NCBI GenBank assembly: GCA_016205145.1
Contig: JACQJH010000001.1
Coordinates: 90,001-122,000, forward strand
Origin: Candidatus Iainarchaeum sp.
GTDB lineage: Archaea > Iainarchaeota > Iainarchaeia > Iainarchaeales > JACQJH01
Direction of reading: 5' to 3'
DNA: 32,000 nt
The translations under genes and the position numbers were made by a program. Positions 10,986 through 32,000 of the stretch are shown piece by piece. Below the pieces are notes generated by a model that was not told the origin of the DNA, did no database searches, and saw only the letters and a program-made list of their open reading frames with translations. Position 1 is the first letter of the stretch, and every line of letters starts with the position of its first letter.

Positions 10986-11948
10986 GTGAAAAAAACAAGG
11001 ACGATTTTTATTCCACTAATACTGTTTGCCGCATTGGTCTTTGCGGGCTGCACACAGGCAAACGAAAAAACGGGTTTGCTGACACTCAGCGCCAACGAAC
11101 GCGTAAACATTCTTGACGGTGACAGGTACTGGTCATTAGGAGCAGGAAAAGCCGACGGCATAACAGGACAACCGTTGCAGGACACTTCAACAATCTACCC
11201 CGGCTCATTTTCAATAAGAGACCTCTGGGTGCAAAAAGACAGATTATTCATTGACAGAACCGGCAGAATCGGAATCGGAACAACAGCCCCAGAAGTCAAA
11301 CTTGACATAAAAGAATCCGACCAAACATACCCGCCCTTAAGAATAACCAACACGAAAAACGATGGTTACGCAGGCATCGTCTTTGGCACAGATAGCGGCA
11401 TACAAGGGCACATGGGAGCCGCAGGTTATTATGCTGCCAATCAAAAGCTGAGAAACTCCGTTTATTTCGGGTCGACAGGGGACAAAAGAGTGGTAATAAC
11501 CGCAAACGGGATTCCCAGGATGTTCATTGAGCCGACATACTTTCAAAGCTTTATAACAAATTCGCCAGATGCAAATGGATCTACATCCTTTTCTGCCTCA
11601 ACGACCATGACTGCCGGAAACCAAGGAAGAGGAATATATTTTAGGGTAATGGATATTCAGGGAACTCGGACAGCATTGAGCGTCTCATTAGATGCAGGGG
11701 GGTCCACCGGAGTTTTCAGCGTAAACGCCCAAAAACTGGAAACAAGTGGCGGTACTTCATTCACGGCACCACAGACCGCCTTGTCTGTAACACCGGAAAC
11801 AATAAGGTTAACATTACTGAATGGCGCAAGAATAAAGATAGCGTCCTCCGCACCGGCTAACAGGCAGCTTTGTATTACTGGACAGCAAGAATTGGGTTTC
11901 TGTTCGAGTGTAAATGCGGATGGTACGTGCACATGCGTGCCAGTTTAA
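10986..11948 (+). CDS. lipobox surface protein with a tail-fibre-like GIGTT motif; paralog of 31240-32000
   Basis: GTG start 7 nt after GGAGG. MKKTRTIFIPLILFAALVFAGC is a signal plus lipobox. Contains DRTGRIGIGTTAPEVKLDIKESD and a C-terminal 4-Cys motif CITGQQELGFCSSVNADGTCTC. A 200-nt stretch is ~90% identical to the inverted copy at the window end. Confidence 0.7.
   Translation: MKKTRTIFIPLILFAALVFAGCTQANEKTGLLTLSANERVNILDGDRYWSLGAGKADGITGQPLQDTSTIYPGSFSIRDLWVQKDRLFIDRTGRIGIGTTAPEVKLDIKESDQTYPPLRITNTKNDGYAGIVFGTDSGIQGHMGAAGYYAANQKLRNSVYFGSTGDKRVVITANGIPRMFIEPTYFQSFITNSPDANGSTSFSASTTMTAGNQGRGIYFRVMDIQGTRTALSVSLDAGGSTGVFSVNAQKLETSGGTSFTAPQTALSVTPETIRLTLLNGARIKIASSAPANRQLCITGQQELGFCSSVNADGTCTCVPV
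11217..11416 (+). repeat. left arm of an inverted repeat pair (partner 31796-31995)
   Basis: Hand alignment of 11217-11416 against the reverse complement of 31796-31995 gives 19 mismatches in 200 nt, with identical runs up to 32 nt (gacataaaagaatccgaccaaacatacccgcc). Confidence 0.85.
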
Positions 11949-16813: not shown

Positions 16814-18424
16814 GTGGATCAAAACCTTCCAAAAGGCCAGTCCGCCATAGAATATCTTTTGCTGTTGGGCGCCGCGATTTTGATTGCCGCGGTTGTCGTT
16901 GCCTTGATTATTTTTGTGGGTTCCGGGGGCAAGCAGTCGGCGCAAAGAGGGTCGCAGACTGTTGCTGTAGCGCAGGGGAATCTTTCCAAATCCCTTGGCC
17001 TGCCAGGCCCCATCACCGACCGCGGCGGCGGAATTTTTGATTTGAAAAAGGATTTTGGCGCGAAAGGCGACGGGGTTTCCGACGATTATGAATCGTTCAT
17101 TGCTGCTGCGGCCAAGCTGAGCGGTTCGACTGACGCAACGCTTGTCATTCCTGCAGGGGACTATAAGATTGACCGGTACAAGATTTTGGCTGCGACTTCC
17201 GACGGCAGGCTTCCAAATGGCGTAACCGACATCAAGTTTTCCGGATGCAACGGCCTGGAAATTGTCGGCTTGGGAAAGGACGCATCGGGAAACTACAAGG
17301 CAAAAGTCGAGGTCAAGGGCGACTTTTACAGGTCGGCGGACCGCAGTGCCGTCAATGCCGCGGGCGTGACGGTGTGGAGTTCCAATTCCGGTTCGGTCAC
17401 GCCGTTTTATTTCGATCACTGTAACGGATTTTCCATTTCCGGCTTGGAATTGTACGGCAACAACGACAAGATGTCGCACGATCCGCGCGTCAGAGAACAC
17501 CCGTCAGGAATGGGCATTGCGACTTATGGCTGCAAAAATTATTCGATTTCCGACATTTTTGTGCACAACTTCCAGACGGACGGCATTTACCTTGGCGGCT
17601 CGGCAAGCCCCGTGGATTCGGGCGCAACCGTTGACGGCGTGGTTTCAAGCAGCAACGGCAGGCAGGGCCTCAGCATAATTCAGGTGAAAAACTCGACAAT
17701 AAAAAACAGCGTTTTCAAGGACACCGGCATTACGGGCGGAAGCGACACAGGATATAATCCGAGGGCCGGCGTTGACATCGAGCCGAACGTGAACGTCCCC
17801 AACATAACCGAAAATCTTGTTTTTGAAAACGACGAGTTCAGCAACAACCGCGGCTACCAGATTGTTTCAAGCGCTTATGTTGGCGGAATCGTGGTCAGGA
17901 ATTCAAGGGTTTTTTCGGGAAACCAGCGCAAGCTCGCCTATTTCAGGGTGAACGGCATTACAATCGAGGGCTCCGAATTCAAGACTTCTGCAAGGGAGTT
18001 TGCCCAGGACTGGGACAAGAGCGGATTCGGGGTCACTCTCATGGCGGGCGGAACCGCGCTTATAAAAAACAATCTCATAGAGGCATCCTCGTTGGCGTAT
18101 CCTGTGAAAACCGTTGGAATCCACAGGCCTTACGTGCACTTCTTTTCGGGAAGCGGGATAACCTTTGCGGGCAACAGAATTTCCACCGACTCAAGCTTTT
18201 TTTATCCCATTTCAGGGCAGGCTTATGACACCGCAATTTATTTGAACGTCGGCGAATCCTCGAACAACACTTTTTCGACCGGCATGACCGGCTTAAACCA
18301 TTTCGCAGTCGTTTACGGCCCGGCCACAAAAGTCGTTTCAGACGCGTTTTTGCCGCGGGACAATTTCAGGCCGCAGCCGGGATATGTTTGGACTGGCGCA
18401 GGCAACTCTTATTCGCAGAACTGA
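16814..18424 (+). CDS. class III (prepilin-type) signal peptide fused to a right-handed beta-helix, pectate-lyase-superfamily domain
   Basis: GTG start. N-terminus MDQNLPKG/QSAIEYLLLLGAAILIAAVVVALI (basic residue-Gly, then Q at +1, E at +5, then a hydrophobic helix). Followed by FDLKKDFGAKGDGVSDDYESF..VIPAGDY and repeated PbH1-like turns: NGFSISGLELYGNN, YSISDIFVHNFQTDGIYLGG, GLSIIQVKNSTIKNSVF, LVFENDEFSNN. Confidence 0.8.
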   Translation: MDQNLPKGQSAIEYLLLLGAAILIAAVVVALIIFVGSGGKQSAQRGSQTVAVAQGNLSKSLGLPGPITDRGGGIFDLKKDFGAKGDGVSDDYESFIAAAAKLSGSTDATLVIPAGDYKIDRYKILAATSDGRLPNGVTDIKFSGCNGLEIVGLGKDASGNYKAKVEVKGDFYRSADRSAVNAAGVTVWSSNSGSVTPFYFDHCNGFSISGLELYGNNDKMSHDPRVREHPSGMGIATYGCKNYSISDIFVHNFQTDGIYLGGSASPVDSGATVDGVVSSSNGRQGLSIIQVKNSTIKNSVFKDTGITGGSDTGYNPRAGVDIEPNVNVPNITENLVFENDEFSNNRGYQIVSSAYVGGIVVRNSRVFSGNQRKLAYFRVNGITIEGSEFKTSAREFAQDWDKSGFGVTLMAGGTALIKNNLIEASSLAYPVKTVGIHRPYVHFFSGSGITFAGNRISTDSSFFYPISGQAYDTAIYLNVGESSNNTFSTGMTGLNHFAVVYGPATKVVSDAFLPRDNFRPQPGYVWTGAGNSYSQN

Positions 18425-18483
18425 CGTTTGCCTTTTGTGCACTTGGGCGTGCCAAAGGATTTAATTTGTGTGAATGATATTTG

Positions 18484-20031
18484 ATGGTGAAACCGATGTT
18501 TTCCCGTGGCCAGTCCGCAATCGAGTATCTGCTGTTGCTTGGCGCCGCGATTTTGATTGCCGCGGTTGTCGTTGCCTTGATTTCTTTTGTGGGTTCGGGC
18601 GGAAAGACTTCGGCGCAGGAATCAGGCGTGCAGCAGAGGCTGGCAATGCAGAACCTTGCGGCTGTTGGGGGCATGGGTTTCTCCTATTCCTGTGTTGCTA
18701 ATGGTGTCTGCGAAGCCGATGAAACAATGCAGTCCTGTTCCGCGGACTGTGCTGGCAAGCCTTTCAGGCAGTACCTGCATTTTTATTCGGCGGAGGCGGG
18801 GGGTTCTGAGGTTTCTTCCGTGCCGGCGCCCATGCTTAACGTGCCCGCTTCGGGTTTGCGGCATTATATCTATGTCGAGCTTTCCGAAATGCACGGGCAT
18901 CTCAGTGTTTACCGTTCCGCCACCGTAAACAATGCGAATAACCGGTCTGTCGCGCTTTCACCCGGCGAAATCGACGCGCTGTTCAATCTTTACGGCGTGG
19001 AAACGGGCAATCCTGTTAGAGGGAAGAGCATGAACATGAGCATACTGCAGCGTGCCGACGTGCAGAAAATCCATCATGAACTTGCACAAGGCAATCCTGC
19101 GTATAATGCAAAGTACGGCAATGGCGGCCTGGAAACAGGGGTCGGGCTTGACGGTTCCGGAATGCCCGTTCTTGATGCTTCCGACAAGCTTGTGCCGGAC
19201 AGACCGGTACAGGATTACCAAGACGGCAAAACAATGCTGTGGCCGTTTTACTACAATGCCAGCGGCAAGCATAAGATGAGGGTTCTCTGGAACCTTAACA
19301 GCCCGGCGGTCAGGGAATATCTTGTGCGGTACGGCGTGAAAACCGCCTCTTTCAGTCCAAGCGGCGACCTGTTTATTGACAACACTATTTTTCCGGGCCA
19401 GGTGCTGGAGGATTATTCATATGTTTTTTCAGGTGCAAGGAACGGCCTTGCGGCGCATCTTTCCGGCATTACATTGGAAATTCGGGCAGAAATCGTGAAA
19501 CGGCTTGACGGAAAGGGGCTGATAATGAACGCTCTCAGGTTCACAAACTCCGACAATGAGATATTTTCTGATGCTGTTGTTGATTCCGGCCAGTTTGACG
19601 GTTTGATGGCCGAAAACCAGTTTTGGCGTGATGGCATTGCCATTGGCGGTTCTCCAAGGGGTGCGACGTCCGTTGCATGGTACCGGGATTTGACGCAGAA
19701 AATGAAATCAAAAGGCAAAAAGATTCTTTTTACGGCCTCCGGCTCCGGTTTTACGCGGGCTGATCCCTCAAAGATTTTGCCAGTTTGGTTATGGTTGCAC
19801 TTGGTTGCTGATGACAGCACGTATTTTCTATTGCCGGGCAATGGAGCCGATGGCGATTCGTTTGATAACCAGTTCCTTCCGTTTGTTTTTCCGCTCGGCT
19901 ATCCGCTTGACCAAGCACCGGTGCAGGACGGCAGTGTGTGGAGCAGGCGCTATGAGCGCGGCACGATTGTTTTTGACATTTCAAGCGGAAGGCTTGACGC
20001 CATAAGGTTCGAGGAAAACCCGCCCGGGTGA
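18484..20031 (+). CDS. class III (prepilin-type) signal peptide fused to a Cys mini-module and a GH-like domain; paralog of 26452-28209
   Basis: N-terminus M(VKPM)FSRG/QSAIEYLLLLGAAILIAAVVVALI; alternative ATG at 18496. 18541-18582 is 42/42 identical to 16868-16909. CVANGVCEADETMQSCSADC is followed by ~430 aa collinear with the 26452 gene (SGQFDGLMAEN, WLWLHLVADD, GYPLDQAPVQDGSVWSRRYERGTIVFD). The enzymatic family is not confidently named. Confidence 0.8.
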   Translation: MVKPMFSRGQSAIEYLLLLGAAILIAAVVVALISFVGSGGKTSAQESGVQQRLAMQNLAAVGGMGFSYSCVANGVCEADETMQSCSADCAGKPFRQYLHFYSAEAGGSEVSSVPAPMLNVPASGLRHYIYVELSEMHGHLSVYRSATVNNANNRSVALSPGEIDALFNLYGVETGNPVRGKSMNMSILQRADVQKIHHELAQGNPAYNAKYGNGGLETGVGLDGSGMPVLDASDKLVPDRPVQDYQDGKTMLWPFYYNASGKHKMRVLWNLNSPAVREYLVRYGVKTASFSPSGDLFIDNTIFPGQVLEDYSYVFSGARNGLAAHLSGITLEIRAEIVKRLDGKGLIMNALRFTNSDNEIFSDAVVDSGQFDGLMAENQFWRDGIAIGGSPRGATSVAWYRDLTQKMKSKGKKILFTASGSGFTRADPSKILPVWLWLHLVADDSTYFLLPGNGADGDSFDNQFLPFVFPLGYPLDQAPVQDGSVWSRRYERGTIVFDISSGRLDAIRFEENPPG

Positions 20032-23350: not shown

Positions 23351-26300
23351 ATGCCCCATAAAACCGGCCGGCCGCGCCATTATTCCGACAGGGCCATTAA
23401 GCGGCCCGGAAGAGGCTTTTCGCATGGCCAGGGCTCTTTGGACCGCCTGATTCTCCTCGGAATCGTGGTTTTGGTTTTCGCAGTCATAATGCTTGTTGCC
23501 TTTTCCCGTCCGCATGAAAGGGCTGACGGGAAAGTGCAGGCCTATTATGCGGGGAATGGGCGGAGTGGCGTTCGTGAAGTGTTCGACTTTTTGGGCGTGC
23601 TAAAATTTGGCATGAATTCCGGTTCCGGCGGCCCTGAAATTAAGCCCGCCGTCATTCCGGGTGACGTGAACCAAAGCAAAAAGCCGGATGTCGTGCCCGC
23701 AACAGGCACTGACAAGGAACCCGTGATTCGGGCCTGCAGCAATGACTGTTCTTCCGCCGGCTTGAGGCAGTGTTCCGGTTCCGGCTATAATGTCTGCGGA
23801 AACTTTGACGAAGACGACTGCCTTGAATGGGGTTCCTGGACAGGCTGTCCTGACGGCCGGGCGTGCGCCAACGGAAACTGCGAAGTTTCTCGCGGGGTTT
23901 TTTCTTCTGAGGGCCTTGTTTCATACTGGCGTTTTGATGATTTGTCGGATTCGTTTGGTTCAAATGATTTGGTTATGTCCGGCAATGTTGTTGCGGGTTC
24001 TTCGCCTGATTGCGCTTTCGGCGGCTGCCTTGCCCTTGATTCTTCTTCCGGGCAGGCCGAAGCCAGGGGTTTGCCGGATTCGGGCGGTTTGTCTGATTTG
24101 TCGATTGCGTTGCGCGTCAAGTTTGGCGCCGGTGGCGATACTGCCACCCGGGCCTGGGTGGCGGGCTGGGCCGATGCGCAGGGCCAGGGCGTAGGTTTTT
24201 ACCGCTATGGCGCCAGCCAGCTTGTTTTTTTCGCCAACGGCGCGGATGGCAGTTTGACTGATTGCTGGAGTTCCGCCTTGAATGACGGCAAATGGCACCG
24301 GCTGGCGGGCGAGGCGTCTGAACAGCACATAACCTTGTTTGTGGACGGGTTTCCTCTTTGTTACAAGGCGCGTTCCGGCGCATTTCTTTCCGGCGCCAGC
24401 TTCAAGGCCGGCGGCCCGGTTTCCCCATCTGGCAGCGTTCTTGTTGACGAGCTGATGGTTTTCGACCGTTCGTTCACGCAGTTCGTTCACCCGCAGGCCG
24501 GTTACACTTTGCTGGGCGCTTTGCCATCCAACGCGCTTGGCATGAGGGGGCCGGTTATAGGCGCCGGCGGCGCGGTGCCGGGCGTGTACCTGTTTGACGG
24601 CAAAATATACTTTTTTTCCAGCATGGACGCATACAACTATTATAGCCTTTGCAGTTACGCCGTTTCAGGCAGCTCCGCGCGCTCTTTTGCTGTCGAGTAC
24701 GGTGATCGTTACAATACCTTCTTCGTGGACGGGGGCTTGGTGTGTGCGTGGCCGGCAAACCGCGGGCTCGCCGTTGCGCGTCCGCCTGACGACGGCTATG
24801 CCAATGAAGGGGCGGCCGCAACCACGCGGCTGCAGGCGGGCACGTTCCTGTCAACGGCCGGCCTTGACGGGCTGCCCGTGCACCGCAAGCGCCTAATTAC
24901 CGCGGGCTGGCTCAGCCCTGATTTGAAGTCCTTAAAGGAAGACCTTGGCGTGTACGACGAGTCCGGATTCGACGGCATCGCGATAGACGACGAGGTATTC
25001 TTCAATGAACCGGGCAGGCCGTGGCCATTGAATATATTTCAGAAGACCGCCTTAAGCACGGGCCGCAGGTACCGGGAAGGGCAGTTTGACGCCGTCGCCG
25101 GAGAAGTCGGGCAGGCCCTGGGAAAAGCGAAGAACCTGAAGCATAATTACATGGTACTCTATCTGGGCTGGACGCATTCGTCGGTTCTCGGCAACCACCT
25201 GAGCCCGGTGCTCGATGCGGACGGGATACCGGTATTCGACGCCAACGGCCTTAAGCTCCATAACCTGACTGCGGACGAGCAATGGCAAATCATTGCCGGC
25301 AACGCGCGGGTTGCAGCAGGGCTGGCGAAAAAGGCCGGCCTTGAAGGAATCATAATTGATACTGAACAGAACTATTCGGTCAACACCCAGGACCCCGGTT
25401 ACATTGCTTACAAGGGTTCTCCGCTTACCCTCAGCTACGAACAATCCGTGCCGGTCAATCCGGCGCCGTTCGCCGAGTACGAGGCCGCGGCCCGCCAGCG
25501 GGGGCAACAATTGGCATCCGCGATGGCCGAGGAGTATCCGGACATGACCGTGCTCTTCCATTTTGCGTACAGCCTGTACAGCGACAAGGACAGAAAGGAA
25601 ACAGGCGGAATCGACCAAAAGAGTTATTTGGAACGGTATACCCTACTGCCTGCCTTCATCGACGGCATGCTCGAAGGCGCTCCGGGCATCCGGTTCATTG
25701 ACGGCGACGAGTGGACCTACACCATCCGGCGGCGCGGGCAACTGCTTGACCGCAAGAAGCATTTCCTTGAAAACGCGCTTGAAAAATCCGCCACAAACAC
25801 GCCCGGGAACCGACAGATTGAATACGGTCAAGAGCTGTGGGCTACCGTGCTTGAGCAGACGCCCGATGATGCAGCTTGGGTTGATGTAAACTTTATTCCC
25901 GAAGATGAGATTGAATTGGCTAAGCAGTTCGGATACGGAATCCGCGACGCCTTGCGCGCAAGCGAGGGCATGGTTCTGATTTGGCACGCACAGCGTCCGC
26001 CGTGGCCGGTCTACCGGACTGCAAGAAATGGGCAGAGGTACCGCGCCCAGGGCGTGATGCCCGATTCTTTCAGACAGGCGATAAAGGATGCGCGCAAGAA
26101 TGTCGAGGGCAACACCAATCCGGTGATGCCGGTTGTCGGTTTTGTTTCGGCAGGCACGGGGGAAAAAGTTTCAATCACTTTGCCTGAGGCAAGCGACGCC
26201 GACGGGGATTCCTTGATTACCTGGGTTGACGGCCTGCCGGAAGGCGCGTCTTACGAGCCGCTTTCCCGCACAATCGAATGGCCGAACCCGCGCGCGGGAA

Positions 26301-26377
26301 TCTACTCCCTGTCTTACGGCGCTTCCGACGGCTTTTTGGAAGCCGCGGCACAGTTCAGCCTTGTGATTTACGGCTAG
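23351..26377 (+). CDS. large secreted multidomain protein: possible degenerate class III signal, Cys-rich module, LamG/ConA-like lectin domain, ~550-aa putative TIM-barrel-like domain, C-terminal Ig/cadherin-like domain
   Basis: 1008 aa from ATG 23351; the track start 23285 would abut the divergent gene. FSHG/QGSLDRLILLGIVVLVFAVIMLV. CSNDCSSAGLRQCSGSGYNVCGNFDEDDCLEWGSWTGCPDGRACANGNC. LamG-type GLVSYWRFDDLSDSFGSNDLVMSGN...WHRLAG...LFVDG...VDELMVFDRSF. GFDGIAIDDE and GLEGIIIDTEQNY. C-terminal ITLPEASDADGDSLITWVDGLPEGASYEP...GIYSLSYGASDG. Confidence 0.8.
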   Translation: MPHKTGRPRHYSDRAIKRPGRGFSHGQGSLDRLILLGIVVLVFAVIMLVAFSRPHERADGKVQAYYAGNGRSGVREVFDFLGVLKFGMNSGSGGPEIKPAVIPGDVNQSKKPDVVPATGTDKEPVIRACSNDCSSAGLRQCSGSGYNVCGNFDEDDCLEWGSWTGCPDGRACANGNCEVSRGVFSSEGLVSYWRFDDLSDSFGSNDLVMSGNVVAGSSPDCAFGGCLALDSSSGQAEARGLPDSGGLSDLSIALRVKFGAGGDTATRAWVAGWADAQGQGVGFYRYGASQLVFFANGADGSLTDCWSSALNDGKWHRLAGEASEQHITLFVDGFPLCYKARSGAFLSGASFKAGGPVSPSGSVLVDELMVFDRSFTQFVHPQAGYTLLGALPSNALGMRGPVIGAGGAVPGVYLFDGKIYFFSSMDAYNYYSLCSYAVSGSSARSFAVEYGDRYNTFFVDGGLVCAWPANRGLAVARPPDDGYANEGAAATTRLQAGTFLSTAGLDGLPVHRKRLITAGWLSPDLKSLKEDLGVYDESGFDGIAIDDEVFFNEPGRPWPLNIFQKTALSTGRRYREGQFDAVAGEVGQALGKAKNLKHNYMVLYLGWTHSSVLGNHLSPVLDADGIPVFDANGLKLHNLTADEQWQIIAGNARVAAGLAKKAGLEGIIIDTEQNYSVNTQDPGYIAYKGSPLTLSYEQSVPVNPAPFAEYEAAARQRGQQLASAMAEEYPDMTVLFHFAYSLYSDKDRKETGGIDQKSYLERYTLLPAFIDGMLEGAPGIRFIDGDEWTYTIRRRGQLLDRKKHFLENALEKSATNTPGNRQIEYGQELWATVLEQTPDDAAWVDVNFIPEDEIELAKQFGYGIRDALRASEGMVLIWHAQRPPWPVYRTARNGQRYRAQGVMPDSFRQAIKDARKNVEGNTNPVMPVVGFVSAGTGEKVSITLPEASDADGDSLITWVDGLPEGASYEPLSRTIEWPNPRAGIYSLSYGASDGFLEAAAQFSLVIYG

Positions 26378-26417
26378 CGGCCTATAACCGTTTGGCATTC
26401 TTTCATGGGCATGCTTT

Positions 26418-26492
26418 CTGTTTTAAAAAACCTTTCAGGGCAATCGTTTTTATGCATCCAAGCGACGCCATCAAGGGAACCGCGTCAAAAAG
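26418..26492 (+). repeat. direct repeat copy A: promoter plus first 13 codons (partner 28245-28320)
   Basis: ctgttttaaaaaacctttcagggcaatcgtttttatgcatccaagcgacgccatcaagggaaccgcgtcaaaaag is ~84% identical to copy B, with an identical 21-nt core cgtttttatgcatccaagcga. The TATA-like ttttaaaaaa (26421-26430) lies ~26 nt upstream of the conserved ATG at 26452. Confidence 0.85.
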
Positions 26493-28209
26493 ATTTTTCA
26501 TGCCGCATTTGAAACCGGTTGTTGTCTGCGCATTTGTGTTGCTTGTTTTGCTTTCCGGTTGCACCGCCACAAAAAGCAAAGGCGTGGAAAAGCCGGTTGA
26601 TTCCGACAAAAACTTTTTGGATTCAAACCAAGCCAAGTCCGCGCCCGAAACTGGCGGGCCGCGACAGCCGCCAACCACGGAATTGGTTGCTGAACAACCG
26701 GACGCCAATGTTCCGGATGCAAACGCCGGCGCACCCGACGTGAATGCAGCGGCTGCTGTCGTGTTTTGTAACCGGAACGGCGCCTGCGACACAAACGAGT
26801 CCGCGGTTTCCTGTCCGGCCGATTGTGCCATTCTTTCCGGAGGCGGAGGAGGCGGCAATTCGCCACAGCCGCCGTCAGGAAACGATAGCGGTTCGTGCAA
26901 TTCGGACGGCGCATGCAACGGAAACGAGGACACAGCTTCATGCCCTGCTGACTGCAGTGTAAGGCAGTTCAGGCATTATTTGCGGTTTTATGCTTTGGAT
27001 TACTATAATCGGTTTTCAACAAAGCCGCCGGCGCCGGAAGGGCTGGTTGAATTCACCATCACGCAGGGCACGCCTTTTGGCAACCTGCAGGATTATACTC
27101 ATTTTAATGTGACGGATTCCGGCCATGTTGTTTTGACAACTTCCACTGCGCCCAAAACTCTTGTTGCGTTGAGCCAAAGCGAGCTTGACGGCTTGTTTGC
27201 GCAGTATGGTTTTGGCGGGGATAAAAACAACATCTATTCTGGCGTGATTGCAAGGGCTGAAGTCGGGAAAATCCATGAGGAACTTGTAGAACGCCATCCG
27301 GAGCTTTTTCCGAACGGCACTGAATTGTTTGTCGGCGCCGTCATAGGGCCGGACGGGTTGCCCGAGCTCGTGGACAACTTTCCGGTCAGGGAAAGAAGCG
27401 ACATTGCCGACTACCAGCTTGGCAAAACAATGGTTTACCCGCTTCCATATTCGCCGGTCGGCTACGGGCGGTACCGGACGCTTTGGAATCACGGCAGCTG
27501 GGCGGTCAGGGTATATCTTGCAAGAAGGGCCAATAAGCTGGTGAATGGCGTTCCAGGCGTGGAGAATATTTTTTTGGATAACGTGCAATTGCCGGCTTAT
27601 ATCAAATATCTTGGCTCCCGTGTTGGTTCGGTTCCGGTGCCAAATTATGTTTCGCCCGGAAGCAGGGATGAACAGTTTGCTGTTTATGCGAACAATTTTG
27701 TTTCGGTTCTTACTGCCGTTCGCGTAAAAACCGGCGCAAAAATGCTTCTTAACGGTTTGTATGAAGTGAAGGCTAACCAAAGCATTTTTTTTCAAAAACT
27801 AATTGCGTCCGGCCAGTTTGACGGCCTTATGACGGAAAACGGGTTTTTTGCTGACGGCGTGGAAAACAATTTGGGCGGCAGCGCGGCAAGCGTGCAATGG
27901 TACTGGGATCAGGTGCAGTGGTTGAAGCAAAACGGCAAAAACGCGGTTTTTTTGGCGGGCGGGAAGGACGCTTCGAAGGCATCCAAGGCCTGGCTTTGGG
28001 TGCATTTAGTTGCTGACACCAATGTTTTCTTTTCGACCAATCCCAATGAACATTTTGACGTTTACGATTCTCCTTTGGGGTATCCTCTTGACCAGGCTCC
28101 GGTAAAAAACGGCAGCGTGTGGAGCAGGCGCTACGAGCGCGGCACGATTGTCTTTGACGTTTCGGGCGGAAGGCTTGACGACATAAAGTTTGTCGAAGGC
28201 CCGGCATAG
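26452..28209 (+). CDS. lipobox-anchored GH-like protein with two Cys mini-modules; paralog of 18484-20031
   Basis: MHPSDAIKGTASKRFFMPHLKPVVVCAFVLLVLLSGC; alternative start at 26500. FCNRNGACDTNESAVSCPADCA, a GGGGGG linker and CNSDGACNGNEDTASCPADCS. The body is collinear with the 18484 gene (SGQFDGLMTEN, WLWVHLVADT, GYPLDQAPVKNGSVWSRRYERGTIVFD). Confidence 0.8.
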   Translation: MHPSDAIKGTASKRFFMPHLKPVVVCAFVLLVLLSGCTATKSKGVEKPVDSDKNFLDSNQAKSAPETGGPRQPPTTELVAEQPDANVPDANAGAPDVNAAAAVVFCNRNGACDTNESAVSCPADCAILSGGGGGGNSPQPPSGNDSGSCNSDGACNGNEDTASCPADCSVRQFRHYLRFYALDYYNRFSTKPPAPEGLVEFTITQGTPFGNLQDYTHFNVTDSGHVVLTTSTAPKTLVALSQSELDGLFAQYGFGGDKNNIYSGVIARAEVGKIHEELVERHPELFPNGTELFVGAVIGPDGLPELVDNFPVRERSDIADYQLGKTMVYPLPYSPVGYGRYRTLWNHGSWAVRVYLARRANKLVNGVPGVENIFLDNVQLPAYIKYLGSRVGSVPVPNYVSPGSRDEQFAVYANNFVSVLTAVRVKTGAKMLLNGLYEVKANQSIFFQKLIASGQFDGLMTENGFFADGVENNLGGSAASVQWYWDQVQWLKQNGKNAVFLAGGKDASKASKAWLWVHLVADTNVFFSTNPNEHFDVYDSPLGYPLDQAPVKNGSVWSRRYERGTIVFDVSGGRLDDIKFVEGPA

Positions 28210-28244
28210 GTCAGCCGTTTTGTTCGCTGTTTGTCGTATCCGCG

Positions 28245-28320
28245 CTGTTTTAAAAATCCTTTTCCGGCCATTCGTTTTTATGCATCCAAGCGAAGCAATC
28301 CGGGCTTCCGCGTCAAAAAG
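28245..28320 (+). repeat. direct repeat copy B: promoter plus first 13 codons of coaBC
   Basis: ctgttttaaaaatccttttccggccattcgtttttatgcatccaagcgaagcaatccgggcttccgcgtcaaaaag. The TATA-like ttttaaaaa (28248-28256) lies ~28 nt upstream of ATG 28280. Confidence 0.85.
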
Positions 28321-29482
28321 CCTTTACGGAAAGCTCATAGTGTTGGGAGTTTCATCAAGCATTGCCGCAGTGAAGACTGTTGAAATTGCAAGGGAACTGA
28401 TCAGGCACGGCGCGGAAGTGCAGGCAGTGATGTCAAAGGGCGCGGAAGACATCATTGCGCCGGGGGCGCTGGAGTTTGCCACGGGGAAGCCTGTCATAAC
28501 GCATCTCAGCGGAATGGTCGAGCACGTCGACCTGTTCGGAGCGCATGGAAAAGCCGATTTGCTTTTGTTGTGCCCTGCAAGCGCAAACGTGATTGGAAAA
28601 ATCGCGAATGGCATAGCTGATGATGCCCTGACAACCATTGCAATGACTGTTGTTGGGGTGAAAAAGCCAGTCCTGGTCTGCCCGGCAATGCATTTGGAAA
28701 TGTGGCAGAACACTGCCGTCAGGGTGAACGTCGAAAAGCTTGGCGTGCTGGGCGCGGAATTCGTGCCGGCGAAAAGCCTTGAAGGCGCGGAAAAAATCGC
28801 GGACAAGGAAACGATTGTGCTGTTTGTGGAACGGGCGCTTTCCGGCAAAAGGCTTGCAGGCAAAAAGGTTGTCGTTTGCGCCGGCGCAACGCGCGAGGAA
28901 ATCGATCCCGTGCGCGTGCTGACAAACAAGGCATCGGGAAAAACCGGCGAGGAAATCGCAAAAGAGGCTTTCAGGCAGGGCGCACAAACCACACTTATAC
29001 ATAATCGGGATTGTTTTGTTTCCGGCATCAAATGCGTGCAGGCGCAAACCATCGAGGAATTCCGCAAGGCAATCCTTTCGGAGCTTGAAGGCGCGGATGT
29101 TTTCGTCTCGGCGGCGGCAATCGGCGATTTTGTAGTGGAAAAGGCGAAGGACAAGCTTGCTTCGGAAAAAGGCGTTGAATTGAAGTTCAGGCCCGCCCCT
29201 AAAATCCTCGCGGAAGTCGTGAAGAAATTTCCCGATTTGTTCGTTGTCGCGTTCAAGGCGGAAACGAACAAGGGGACGGAAGAGCTTGAAAAAATCGCAA
29301 AGGAAAAGCTGAAGGAACTGAAGCAGGGCTTTGTGGTTGCGAACGACGTGGCACATGGTGGAATGGGAACGGATGAAAATTCGGTTTTGATCGTCGGCAA
29401 AAACTTTTCGGAAAGCGTTTCAGGAAAGAAAAGCCTGATTGCCAGAAAAATCGTGGAAAAAATTGAATGCGGTCTGCCATAA
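28280..29482 (+). CDS. coaBC: bifunctional phosphopantothenoylcysteine decarboxylase / phosphopantothenate-cysteine ligase
   Basis: 400 aa from MHPSEAIRASASKSLYGKLIVLGVSSSIAAVK. CoaC region: PASANVIGKIANGIADDALT. CoaB region: VCAGATREEIDPVRVLTNKASGKTG and AAAIGDF. The start is chosen at the conserved ATG of repeat B rather than the track start 28190. Confidence 0.9.
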   Translation: MHPSEAIRASASKSLYGKLIVLGVSSSIAAVKTVEIARELIRHGAEVQAVMSKGAEDIIAPGALEFATGKPVITHLSGMVEHVDLFGAHGKADLLLLCPASANVIGKIANGIADDALTTIAMTVVGVKKPVLVCPAMHLEMWQNTAVRVNVEKLGVLGAEFVPAKSLEGAEKIADKETIVLFVERALSGKRLAGKKVVVCAGATREEIDPVRVLTNKASGKTGEEIAKEAFRQGAQTTLIHNRDCFVSGIKCVQAQTIEEFRKAILSELEGADVFVSAAAIGDFVVEKAKDKLASEKGVELKFRPAPKILAEVVKKFPDLFVVAFKAETNKGTEELEKIAKEKLKELKQGFVVANDVAHGGMGTDENSVLIVGKNFSESVSGKKSLIARKIVEKIECGLP

Positions 29483-29596: not shown

Positions 29597-31009
29597 ATGC
29601 CGGCCGCGGTTGGAGTTGATTCGTTGAAAAAAAGCATGTTTTTCGTTTTGCTGTTTTTTGGTGTTGTTGTTTCGGGCTGCCTTCAAACTGACTCTGAAAA
29701 AGCCGCCATTGAGCTTTCAGCTTCGACTGTTGAAGGAAAACTCGCCAAGACCCTGATGGAATCGCTGAAAAAGACAGGCGAGTGCAGCGTATCGGATTAT
29801 GCCGGGGTTGCCGGCCCGGCCAACCCGCTGATAAGAAACATGGGCTTTAACGTTTCTCTTCCGACACAGGAGACCGAAGCCGCCGAATTGGTTGAAAATG
29901 CAAAAGAATGCAATGTGCAATTGCTGCGGAACGTTTTGGAAGTCGAAAAGGACAAAAAATACCAGGTCAACTACACTGCAAAAGTTGACAGTTCCTGCAA
30001 ATACTCCGGCCTAAAACCGGTTTTGTCGGCTTATATTTTGACGATTTCGGTCGACCTTGAGGAAAAAACAGCGGTTGTTGAAAAGGGAAAGCTTAAGGAC
30101 AGCATTGCACAGCAGGTATCAGAGTTCCAGCCGGCTTTTATGCTCATGGGAAAGTGCGCGGCTCCAATACTGCTCGGCATTGGATTTTTCGGGGACTTTT
30201 TGGGTTCAGACAGCGGCCCGGGCTTAGACGGCGGTCCAGACGAAGGGGAAAAGATAGCTTACGGCTTTGACGCTTTCTGGGATGATTCGAAACAAAACCC
30301 GATTCAGCTGTCGTGGAATCACGCCCAAAGTGACGGCCAGTACTATGTCGCAATTGAAATGTGGGCCACCGGCAACAGTTCGCCGCTTGGTTCAATTGAA
30401 ACGACCATAGAGAACTTAAAGGACGGCCCGGCGTTCCCGTTGGGCCACGTTTTCAGTTATGACCTGGACGGCGGGGAAATTTATTATGGCGGGCAGCTGT
30501 CATACCCGCACGAATTCAAGGTCGATGCCTATCTTTTGGACAGTGAATACAGCATTGTGGAAAAGTTCGGCTACAAGGAATTTTCAATTGGCGCGCCCCA
30601 ACAGCAGGAGGCGCCGGATGCAGCAGGCGTTGTTTCGAATTTTGTTGCAAGATGGGACGCCGAAGACAGCCAGAACCCCCTGAAGTTTACATGGGATTTT
30701 GTTCCGCAGGGCGGCCAGTATTTTGTGGCGCTTGACATGTGGAATACCGGCAACAGTTCGCCGCTTGGTTCGATTGAAATGACCATAGAGCGGTTAAAGG
30801 AGGGCTCGCCGTTCCCGTTGGGCCATGTTTATGCCGCGGAAGACGGAAGCGGCTCGCTTTATTGGGGCGGGCAATACACTTATCCGGACGTGTTCAGGAT
30901 ACACGCATACCTCTTGGACGAATCATATGATTTGGTCGGGGAAACAGCGTATGTTGAATTGACAAGAAACAATGCTGACGAAAGCCCGACATCGGTTCCC
31001 ATCGGATGA
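29597..31009 (+). CDS. lipobox protein with a C-terminal tandem 126-aa repeat
   Basis: 470 aa. ...KKSMFFVLLFFGVVVSGC is a signal plus lipobox; an in-frame TTG at 29624 is an alternative start. Two repeat units share W(D/N)xxQxxGQY(Y/F)VAx(E/D)MWxTGNSSPLGSIExTIExLK(D/E)GxxFPLGHV...YxGGQxxYPxxFxxxAYLLD. Confidence 0.75.
   Translation: MPAAVGVDSLKKSMFFVLLFFGVVVSGCLQTDSEKAAIELSASTVEGKLAKTLMESLKKTGECSVSDYAGVAGPANPLIRNMGFNVSLPTQETEAAELVENAKECNVQLLRNVLEVEKDKKYQVNYTAKVDSSCKYSGLKPVLSAYILTISVDLEEKTAVVEKGKLKDSIAQQVSEFQPAFMLMGKCAAPILLGIGFFGDFLGSDSGPGLDGGPDEGEKIAYGFDAFWDDSKQNPIQLSWNHAQSDGQYYVAIEMWATGNSSPLGSIETTIENLKDGPAFPLGHVFSYDLDGGEIYYGGQLSYPHEFKVDAYLLDSEYSIVEKFGYKEFSIGAPQQQEAPDAAGVVSNFVARWDAEDSQNPLKFTWDFVPQGGQYFVALDMWNTGNSSPLGSIEMTIERLKEGSPFPLGHVYAAEDGSGSLYWGGQYTYPDVFRIHAYLLDESYDLVGETAYVELTRNNADESPTSVPIG
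30260..30964 (+). repeat. tandem intragenic repeat, two units (30260-30589 and 30638-30964), period 378 nt
   Basis: Core blocks at 30371-30452 and 30749-30830 are ~88-90% identical at the nucleotide level (ggcaacagttcgccgcttggttc.attgaaa.gaccatagag...gttcccgttgggcca.gttt). Confidence 0.8.
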
Positions 31010-31182: not shown

Positions 31183-31224
31183 ATCGTAAAATAAAAAAGA
31201 AAAAGGCGCCGGCAAACGCCGGCG
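31183..31224 (-). terminator. GC hairpin plus U-tract downstream of the minus-strand paralog
   Basis: On the minus strand, cgccggc-gttt-gccggcg (7-bp stem, 31207-31224) is followed by cctttttcttttttatttt. It starts 16 nt after the stop at 31240-31242. Confidence 0.55.
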
Positions 31225-31239
31225 TTGAAGTGTTTTATT

Positions 31240-32000
31240 TCACTGGCAGCCGCACGTGCCGTCAGCGTTCGGCGCGGTCGAGCAGACGCCGAGCTTATTG
31301 TCCGGGGTAATACACACGATTTTGTTTCTTGCCCCGACCTGGAAGCCGGTGGTTGGCCTATGCCCTCTGTAGCTAAGCAATACGTCTCCGCCCAGCTCAA
31401 TTTGCTTCGCGTCGAGAAAAATATTGCTTTTGCGGCCAACGTAACCGCTTGCCCCATTATTTTCCATGGTAATGCCGGCATAATCATTTGAGCCGGCACT
31501 GCCGGACGGCGCAACAAACTGTTCGTTGCCCTGCTGTCGCAGTTCTATTCTATCGGCACTCACTGAGATACTTGAGTACAAAATGTTTCCGTCTGTCAGG
31601 GGTTGTTTCCGGTCTTCCATGTAAATCCCCCTCTGCACGTGATTTGGCATCCCAGTATTAAGCGATGAGTTCAAGCGAATATATGTAAAACCGTCGGCAT
31701 TTTTCGTCGCTATTTTGGTTGGAATGTCGGCATTTGTGCTGCCAAAATAGACCGAGTTTCTAAGCGTTTCGTTCGCCGCGTTCGGCCCGGCAACGCCCAT
31801 GTGCCCTTGTATGCCGCTGCCCGTGCCAAAGATGAGGCCAGCGTAACCGTCGTTTTTCGTGTTGGTTATTCTGAGCGGCGGGTATGTTTGGTCGGATTCT
31901 TTTATGTCGAGTTTTACTTCCGGTGTTGTGGTTCCGATTCCGATTTTGCCGGTTCTGTCAACGAATAATCTGTCTTTTTGCACCCAGAGGTCCCTGATTG
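31240..32000 (-). CDS. tail-fibre-like GIGTT-motif protein, paralog of 10986-11948; 5' end beyond the window
   Basis: The reading frame stays open to the window edge (..IRDLWVQKDRLFVDRTGKIGIGTTTPEVKLDIKESDQTYPPLRITNTKNDGYAGLIFG...). The C-terminal CITPDNKLGVCSTAPNADGTCGCQ has the same 4-Cys motif as the paralog. The Met at 31983 in the track is internal, judged from the paralog alignment. Confidence 0.7.
   Translation of the reverse strand, partial: IRDLWVQKDRLFVDRTGKIGIGTTTPEVKLDIKESDQTYPPLRITNTKNDGYAGLIFGTGSGIQGHMGVAGPNAANETLRNSVYFGSTNADIPTKIATKNADGFTYIRLNSSLNTGMPNHVQRGIYMEDRKQPLTDGNILYSSISVSADRIELRQQGNEQFVAPSGSAGSNDYAGITMENNGASGYVGRKSNIFLDAKQIELGGDVLLSYRGHRPTTGFQVGARNKIVCITPDNKLGVCSTAPNADGTCGCQ
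31796..31995 (-). repeat. right arm of the inverted repeat pair (partner 11217-11416)
   Basis: See the left arm: ~90% identity over 200 nt in inverted orientation. Confidence 0.85.

Follow-up and report, generated by a model that had tools for sequence, protein, structure and literature searches.

The locus considered here raises the question of why two repeat units of a single gene should be nearly identical over a short central stretch of DNA and strongly diverged on both sides of it. The gene lies towards the end of a 32,000-nucleotide (nt) window of the Candidatus Iainarchaeum sp. genome (assembly GCA_016205145.1, contig JACQJH010000001.1, positions 90,001 to 122,000 of the forward strand; the coordinates below are those of the window) and encodes a predicted secreted protein with a lipobox. 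The product is a 100% match to P0001, the NCBI hypothetical protein HY394_00585 from a metagenome-assembled genome of a Candidatus Diapherotrites archaeon (DPANN). In our opinion, the likeness of the two cores is very probably due to a short intragenic gene-conversion tract, formed between the two units in this lineage after it had split from that of the orthologue described below. The elements on which the argument rests are as follows.

29597..31009, + strand: gene of the predicted secreted lipobox protein, 470 amino acids (aa), from the listing of open reading frames (ORFs)
30257..30604, + strand: repeat unit 1, aa 221-336, predicted fibronectin type III (FN3)-like beta-sandwich domain, from unit alignments and an AlphaFold model
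30635..30979, + strand: repeat unit 2, aa 347-461, the same domain, from unit alignments; its protein sequence is 47% identical to that of unit 1
30368..30451, + strand: putative gene-conversion tract, copy in unit 1, aa 258-285, TGNSSPLGSIETTIENLKDGPAFPLGHV
30746..30829, + strand: putative gene-conversion tract, copy in unit 2, aa 384-411, TGNSSPLGSIEMTIERLKEGSPFPLGHV, on the same evidence as the copy in unit 1

The two-unit architecture, described in the first-pass annotation as a tandem repeat with a period of 378 nt or 126 aa, is readily recovered. Comparison of the protein with itself matches 68 residues at an offset of 126 aa, the next best offset giving 39, and comparison of the DNA with itself yields a single peak at 378 nt, at which identity reaches 39% against a background of about 30%. 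Alignment of the units requires only one one-residue indel, near the start, and the motifs that had been quoted as shared (MW.TGNSSPLGSIE and others) are found in both.

Similarity between the units is distributed very unevenly. Within the codon-bounded cores 75 of the 84 nt are identical (89.3%), and at the slightly different boundaries chosen by the first-pass annotation (30371-30452 and 30749-30830) the count is 73 of 82, or 89%, which agrees with its estimate of about 88-90%. The rest of the units was said to be much more diverged, and so it is: the left flanks are 55.6% and the right flanks 47.7% identical. A maximum chi-square scan places the best segment at 30334-30452 (101 of 119 positions identical, chi2 45.9), a value reached in none of 200 permutations of codon columns, and the divergence of the properly aligned units is thus heterogeneous beyond chance rather than uniform. 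A separate repeat search of the window returned the pair 30334-30452 and 30712-30830 (119 nt, 85% identical) and no third copy of the core. The overall divergence of the units is too great for Tandem Repeats Finder, which reports nothing here.

It should be noted that the sequence comes from a metagenome-assembled genome, in which an error of assembly or binning might make two cores look alike. The probability of such an artefact is negligible. Three Logan assemblies of different, independent runs (SRR12113383-85) contain the 1413-nt gene together with its flanks with zero differences, so the repeat pattern is not an assembly artefact. Moreover, the 84-nt tract is shorter than a sequencing read, yet it holds nine differences between the two copies.

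The evidence that carries the argument comes from comparison with P0002, the sole full-length orthologue in which both units are present (472 aa, 60% identical; DNA at L001:965-2383). Units 1 and 2 are denoted here W1 and W2 in the window protein and O1 and O2 in the orthologue. In the flanks, each unit is closest to its positional counterpart in the other protein: DNA identity is 64-71% for W1-O1, 69-73% for W2-O2 and 48-56% for W1-W2, and informative quartet sites fall 45 to the grouping W1O1|W2O2 and 9 and 6 to the other two. This unit-specific orthology shows that the duplication is older than the split from the orthologue. The core behaves differently. Here W1 and W2 are 89.3% identical, W1-O1 64.3%, W2-O2 61.9% and O1-O2 53.6%, and the informative quartet sites are distributed as 5 for W1W2|O1O2, 2 and 1. 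Thus, in the core the paralogous segments of the window gene are closer to each other than to their orthologues, while the flanks give the orthology tree. The maximum chi-square test that singles out the core of W1 and W2 is not significant for O1 and O2 (chi2 12.7, reached in 25 of the 200 permutations).

These relationships also bear on the proposal that the whole unit was duplicated recently and that positive selection then drove rapid divergence outside the core. The distant family members P0010 and P0011, discussed below, show a pattern that such a scenario would produce, their units grouping by protein even at the unit ends (11 sites versus 1). In the window gene, on the other hand, the flanks match their counterparts in the orthologue at 45 of 60 informative sites, and their silent sites are saturated, which is not expected from positive selection on the protein. 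We regard a recent duplication as highly improbable for this gene.

The homogenisation of the core reaches synonymous sites. Between W1 and W2 the proportion of silent-site differences (pS) rises from 0.13 in the core to 0.87 in the flanks; the same core segment compared between O1 and O2 gives 0.86. Analogously, where a degenerate amino acid is conserved between the units, the codon itself is identical at 21 of 23 positions in the W core, compared with 12 of 28 in the W flanks (Fisher p = 3.6e-4) and 5 of 17 in the O core (p = 1e-4 versus the W core). The signal is therefore absent from this segment in the sister lineage.

Purifying selection on the protein alone, under which a critical core would keep its amino acids and its DNA would be alike as a consequence, is very unlikely to account for these values. 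The first half of the core does coincide with the best-conserved motif of the protein family, TGNSxPLGSIExTIxxL, in which the Asn, the Pro-x-Gly-Ser and the Leu, together with the downstream His-Val, are invariant or nearly so. The orthologue, however, keeps this motif with cores that are as different from each other in DNA and at silent sites as given above; since it shares the protein constraint and lacks the DNA identity, constraint cannot explain the identity of the window cores. Nor does it explain why 21 of 23 degenerate codons should be identical in the core and only 12 of 28 in the flanks, and the latter count also disfavours a lineage-specific codon bias forcing identical codons. Moreover, the second half of the tract corresponds to a loop of variable length in the family, so that protein constraint cannot explain the likeness there. 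Constraint is only part of the story, covering the amino acid conservation of the first half of the tract. Of the two explanations offered by the first-pass annotation, local homogenisation or strong constraint, the former is borne out and the latter, taken alone, is not.

High DNA identity that includes silent sites would also be produced by a nucleotide-level element residing in each core, for instance a structured RNA, a regulatory site inside the gene or a signal for recombination. A conserved element of this kind should also occur in the orthologue, where it is absent (62-64% identity between W and O cores, 54% between O1 and O2); furthermore, an Rfam scan of the window is empty, as is a scan for tRNAs, and the core has no third copy in the window. 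Such an element is, in our view, extremely improbable, and conversion remains as the explanation.

The putative tract has sharp bounds. The codons immediately to its left are GCC in unit 1 and AAT in unit 2, and those immediately to its right are TTC and TAT, exactly the TTC of O1 and the TAT of O2. Its length is no less than 84 nt and could reach about 94 nt if the uninformative invariant positions ATG TGG (30359-30364) and T30452 belong to it. Perfect identity extends for at most 26 nt (30368-30393). The nine differences lie at 30394, 30402, 30413-30415, 30424, 30428, 30431 and 30448 and read, unit 1/unit 2, A/G, C/T, A/C, A/G, C/G, C/G, C/T, G/C and C/T. Two of them are synonymous; the remaining seven are spread over five codons with non-synonymous change, the ratio of non-synonymous to synonymous divergence (dN/dS) in the core being about 0.75 from very small counts. 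In the codon at 30413-30415 (AAC versus CGG) all three positions differ amid near-identical sequence, which suggests either two adjacent patches or patchy repair of a heteroduplex.

A surface protein in which two repeats are similar and their differences clustered might bring to mind the template/variable pair of a diversity-generating retroelement, or some other form of programmed variation. There is next to no chance of this. An adenine occupies three of the nine mismatched positions in unit 1 and none in unit 2, so the earlier statement that mismatches are not specific to adenines, and that this is not such a pair, holds. Both copies are in frame within one gene. No reverse transcriptase is found by Pfam among 25 ORFs and segments of the window (24 ORFs and the N-terminal part of the repeat gene, small ORFs not being scanned).

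The gene-conversion reading may be spelled out as follows. A tandem duplication of a domain of about 115 aa with a predicted FN3-like fold formed the C-terminal half of the protein before the split from the orthologue, and the units have since diverged to saturation at silent sites. Later, homologous recombination between the units would have transferred a short segment of one unit to its neighbour in a non-reciprocal manner, possibly as two adjacent patches with the unconverted codon 30413-30415 between them. It is in the most conserved motif of the family, where residual DNA similarity is highest, that the tract begins, and it extends over the variable loop; the conserved motif may thus have seeded or limited the exchange. 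About nine differences would have arisen afterwards or would have stayed unrepaired.

Several observations weigh against this reading or limit its detail. The databases hold one two-unit orthologue, and the timing and lineage specificity of the event consequently rest on four sequences; scans of GTDB genomes and JGI metagenomes gave no further two-unit orthologue, only single-unit relatives already known. The informative quartet sites in the core are few. The nine differences inside the tract, three of them in the AAC/CGG codon, mean that the event was not very recent, or that it was patchy, or that selection acted later, and these possibilities are inseparable. The W1 core is equidistant from O1 and O2 (54 of 84 positions each), so that either unit may have been the donor. 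Finally, no pre-conversion allele is found in the GTDB and JGI scans or in the population data, the three population assemblies being identical.

A similar mosaic is observed elsewhere in the family. P0010 (L008:1201-2367) and P0011 (L021:2-646), two distant members with two units each, have cores whose DNA identity is 98.7% and 92.9% within the respective protein and 68-69% between the proteins, and at all 40 informative core sites the units of one protein go together. At the unit ends, identity is 79% and 67%. The grouping of these ends by protein, cited above, means that a recent duplication is possible in these two cases; nevertheless, comparison of the sequences indicates that the cores are clearly younger than the unit ends.

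Two further, unrelated pairs of paralogues with such a mosaic are present in the window itself. The segment 11212-11470 (+) and the inverted segment 31742-32000 (-), 20 kb apart, are 85% identical over 259 nt; conserved codons are identical at 22-23 of 27-29 positions within this patch versus about 1 in 8 further along, and the paralogous ORFs that contain it (10986-11948, +, and 31240-31983, -) are 43% identical overall. Likewise, 19887-20022 and 28068-28203 are 82% identical in DNA over the last approximately 45 codons of ORF 18481-20031 and ORF 26278-28209 (the latter with a weak GHL15-like match), with 17 of 22 conserved codons identical and an overall protein identity of 37%. In view of these two pairs, ectopic conversion among paralogous genes for surface proteins looks common and may be frequent in this genome.

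Conversion between repeats is a textbook process, and the present case leaves the current understanding of it unchanged. Concerted evolution by gene conversion is known from tufA and tufB of enterobacteria and from the repeated domains of surface proteins in Gram-positive bacteria (Rib/alpha-C and SasG/Aap, for example). The window gene resembles these systems in the apparent non-reciprocal recombination, in paralogous segments that are closer within a genome than orthologues are between genomes, and in the homogenisation of silent sites. In classical surface-protein arrays, however, whole units are near-identical and copy number varies, whereas here two old units are saturated at silent sites, just about 84 of 345 nt are homogenised, and neither the orthologue nor the three assemblies show any variation in copy number, a point that the first-pass annotation had proposed to check. 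A closer parallel in tract length is provided by Sulfolobus acidocaldarius, in which short-patch, discontinuous conversion tracts have been demonstrated experimentally (PMC3367456): the tract described here is likewise very short and possibly discontinuous at codon 30413-30415. It should be noted that S. acidocaldarius is a crenarchaeon and that those experiments used supplied donor DNA, whereas the present event is intragenic, belongs to a DPANN archaeon and is reconstructed from sequence comparison. The locus thus offers a clean, small example of probable intragenic gene conversion in DPANN, a group whose recombination biology is almost unstudied.

What protein segment has been homogenised? 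The domain that makes up the repeat unit appears, from profile searches, to define an undescribed and unannotated family of about 20 proteins, at least partly from DPANN. A search of 1.84 billion representative proteins returned just nine at E <= 0.001, and a second profile search added nine more, all of a divergent subfamily. Nearly all members have a lipobox-like signal peptide ending in Cys, and many have Cys-rich or Thr-rich extracellular regions. The sharpest conservation in the family alignment is in the motif YYVALDMWxTGNSGPLGSIExTIxxL, of which the first half of the tract is a part; it is followed by the variable-length loop, up to about 10 residues longer than that of the window protein, and then by the invariant His-Val. 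In the divergent subfamily (P0010-P0019) the corresponding motif is EYWVYPxVGFTENxGPFGSTPEDEA, and its members have Thr-rich linkers and lipobox-like signal peptides. With such a sharply conserved motif, this family of extracellular proteins is a candidate for the domain databases.

Existing families do not cover it. The whole window protein, either unit and the N-terminal region match no Pfam family, nor do five homologues (P0003, P0005, P0006, P0007 and P0010, at E <= 0.01), and among the members scanned none has a Pfam domain over the unit. Neither unit matches Pfam fn3 (PF00041) even at E <= 1, and a sequence-profile search of the PDB gave only a chance match to an antibody (E = 0.41). An AlphaFold2 model of the unit, built on a five-sequence alignment, has a predicted local distance difference test score (pLDDT) of 83.7 and a predicted template modelling score (pTM) of 0.77, and is thus confident; it shows a beta-sandwich built from seven main strands, together with a short strand at residues 65-67 and one helix. 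Foldseek comparison of this model with the PDB returned mostly FN3 modules, the best at E values of 7e-3 to 7e-2 with template modelling (TM) scores of 0.47-0.56 and none at E <= 0.001; matches to viral models were likewise weak, none at E <= 0.001, and mostly FN3 modules, the TM scores of both searches ranging from 0.45 to 0.56. The predicted fold of the unit thus appears FN3-like, outside the fn3 sequence family.

Within the modelled unit, the core occupies a loop (residues 38-46 of the unit, aa 258-266 of the protein), a helix (47-56, aa 267-276) and a second loop (57-64, aa 277-284). This differs from the beta-hairpin that the first-pass annotation had envisaged for the core: the model places it in a loop-helix-loop between two strands. 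The predicted sandwich bears a weak resemblance to FN3 and Ig-like sandwich domains, including the FN3-like accessory domains of the glycoside hydrolases SleM (5jip), a rhamnosidase (6i60) and an exopolygalacturonase (2uvf), and the FN3 modules of cytokine receptors. Unlike these domains, it carries a 10-residue helix with flanking loops, inserted between two strands and bearing the family motif.

The remainder of the protein consists of a predicted N-terminal export signal and a region that precedes the units.

29597..29680, + strand: predicted signal peptide and lipobox, with a KK n-region, the hydrophobic stretch FFVLLFFGVVV and V25-S26-G27-C28; the Cys codon is at 29678-29680
29681..30256, + strand: N-terminal region, ending in a Gly/Asp/Pro-rich linker, with conserved Cys residues C63, C105, C134 and C187

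The designation as a lipobox protein, already made in the first-pass annotation, is supported by inspection of the N-terminus: K11-K12 precede the hydrophobic stretch F15-V25, and V25-S26-G27-C28 fits the consensus [LVI][ASTVI][GAS]C as quoted in PMC12462473, a study in which lipoproteins are also predicted to be prevalent among DPANN. In P0002, P0003, P0004, P0006, P0007, P0008, P0010, P0013 and P0016-18 the hydrophobic segment is likewise followed directly by a Cys. The same arrangement, an N-terminal signal peptide ending in this consensus, is shared with the archaeal lipobox proteins that are substrates of AliA and AliB in Haloferax (PMC12462473). The window protein is therefore probably a cell-surface protein of Candidatus Diapherotrites, anchored to lipid through Cys28. 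The four Cys residues of the N-terminal region are invariant columns in the alignment with the orthologue, beyond which no relatives of this region were detected. An AlphaFold model of the full-length protein, built on a two-sequence alignment, is unusable (pLDDT 49).

With respect to function, the window protein may possibly be a membrane-anchored extracellular binding protein, although we put this forward only tentatively. The loop-helix-loop with its invariant Asn, Pro-x-Gly-Ser and His would form the binding surface in the modelled domain, and conversion would give the two domains near-identical sites. A more far-reaching idea, and in our judgement a rather unlikely one, is that in tandem duplicates of this undescribed extracellular family the loop-helix-loop is kept near-identical by recurrent conversion while the scaffold is free, or favoured, to diverge. 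If this were true, the protein would bind bivalently, through identical sites carried by two scaffolds that differ, and its ligand could relate to metal uptake, given that genes for ZIP, Fur and ferritin lie near family members in three unrelated loci.

These neighbourhoods are as follows. The gene of P0003 is found on six contigs (L002-L007), and in all five that reach far enough downstream it is adjoined by a ZIP permease gene (e.g., L002:7763-8506); one variant also has a Fur gene (L005:5785-6138). The gene of P0010 is followed by ferritin and ZIP genes (L008:2655-4118), and that of P0005 has a Fur-family gene upstream (PF01475, E 2e-20; L013:1680-2096). No metal-homeostasis genes occur at the window locus, on the P0002 contig or at two other family loci, and the neighbourhoods of P0004, P0006, P0007 and P0008 are uninformative or lie on very short contigs. 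Taken together, the neighbourhoods give a weak hint of a link to metal homeostasis.

The window is a stretch of ordinary chromosome. CoaBC is encoded directly upstream of the repeat gene, and other genes encode pyruvate phosphate dikinase, ThyX, an aminotransferase, a polyprenyl synthetase, CoaE and several large secreted proteins. Synteny with the P0002 contig, which is just 2.8 kb long, was not found, the genes downstream being unrelated. The repeat gene and ORF 31240-31983 converge, and between their 3' ends there is a GC-rich hairpin of 9 pairs (31205-31226) with T-runs on both strands; by its sequence it might be a bidirectional terminator.

Two direct repeats at gene starts were also observed in the window. 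One, of 110 nt and 85% identical (16835-16944 and 18508-18617), marks the 5' ends of two neighbouring genes that encode secreted proteins, namely a beta-helix protein (16814-18424) and ORF 18481-20031, and probably represents a common signal-peptide or N-terminal segment. The other, of 77 nt and 79% identical (26421-26497 and 28249-28325), spans upstream sequence and the first approximately 13 codons (MHPS[D/E]AI...) of two successive genes, one of which is CoaBC; the start of CoaBC is probably the ATG near 28280 rather than the TTG at 28190 of the mechanical ORF call. Finally, three genes of the coenzyme A pathway are present within these 32 kb, at 1431-2475 and 28190-29482: a dephospho-CoA kinase of the CoaE type (PF01121), a protein resembling cytidylyltransferases that is possibly PPAT, and CoaBC. 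Kinases of the CoaE type are bacterial in style, and the presence of one in this DPANN genome may be the result of horizontal acquisition.

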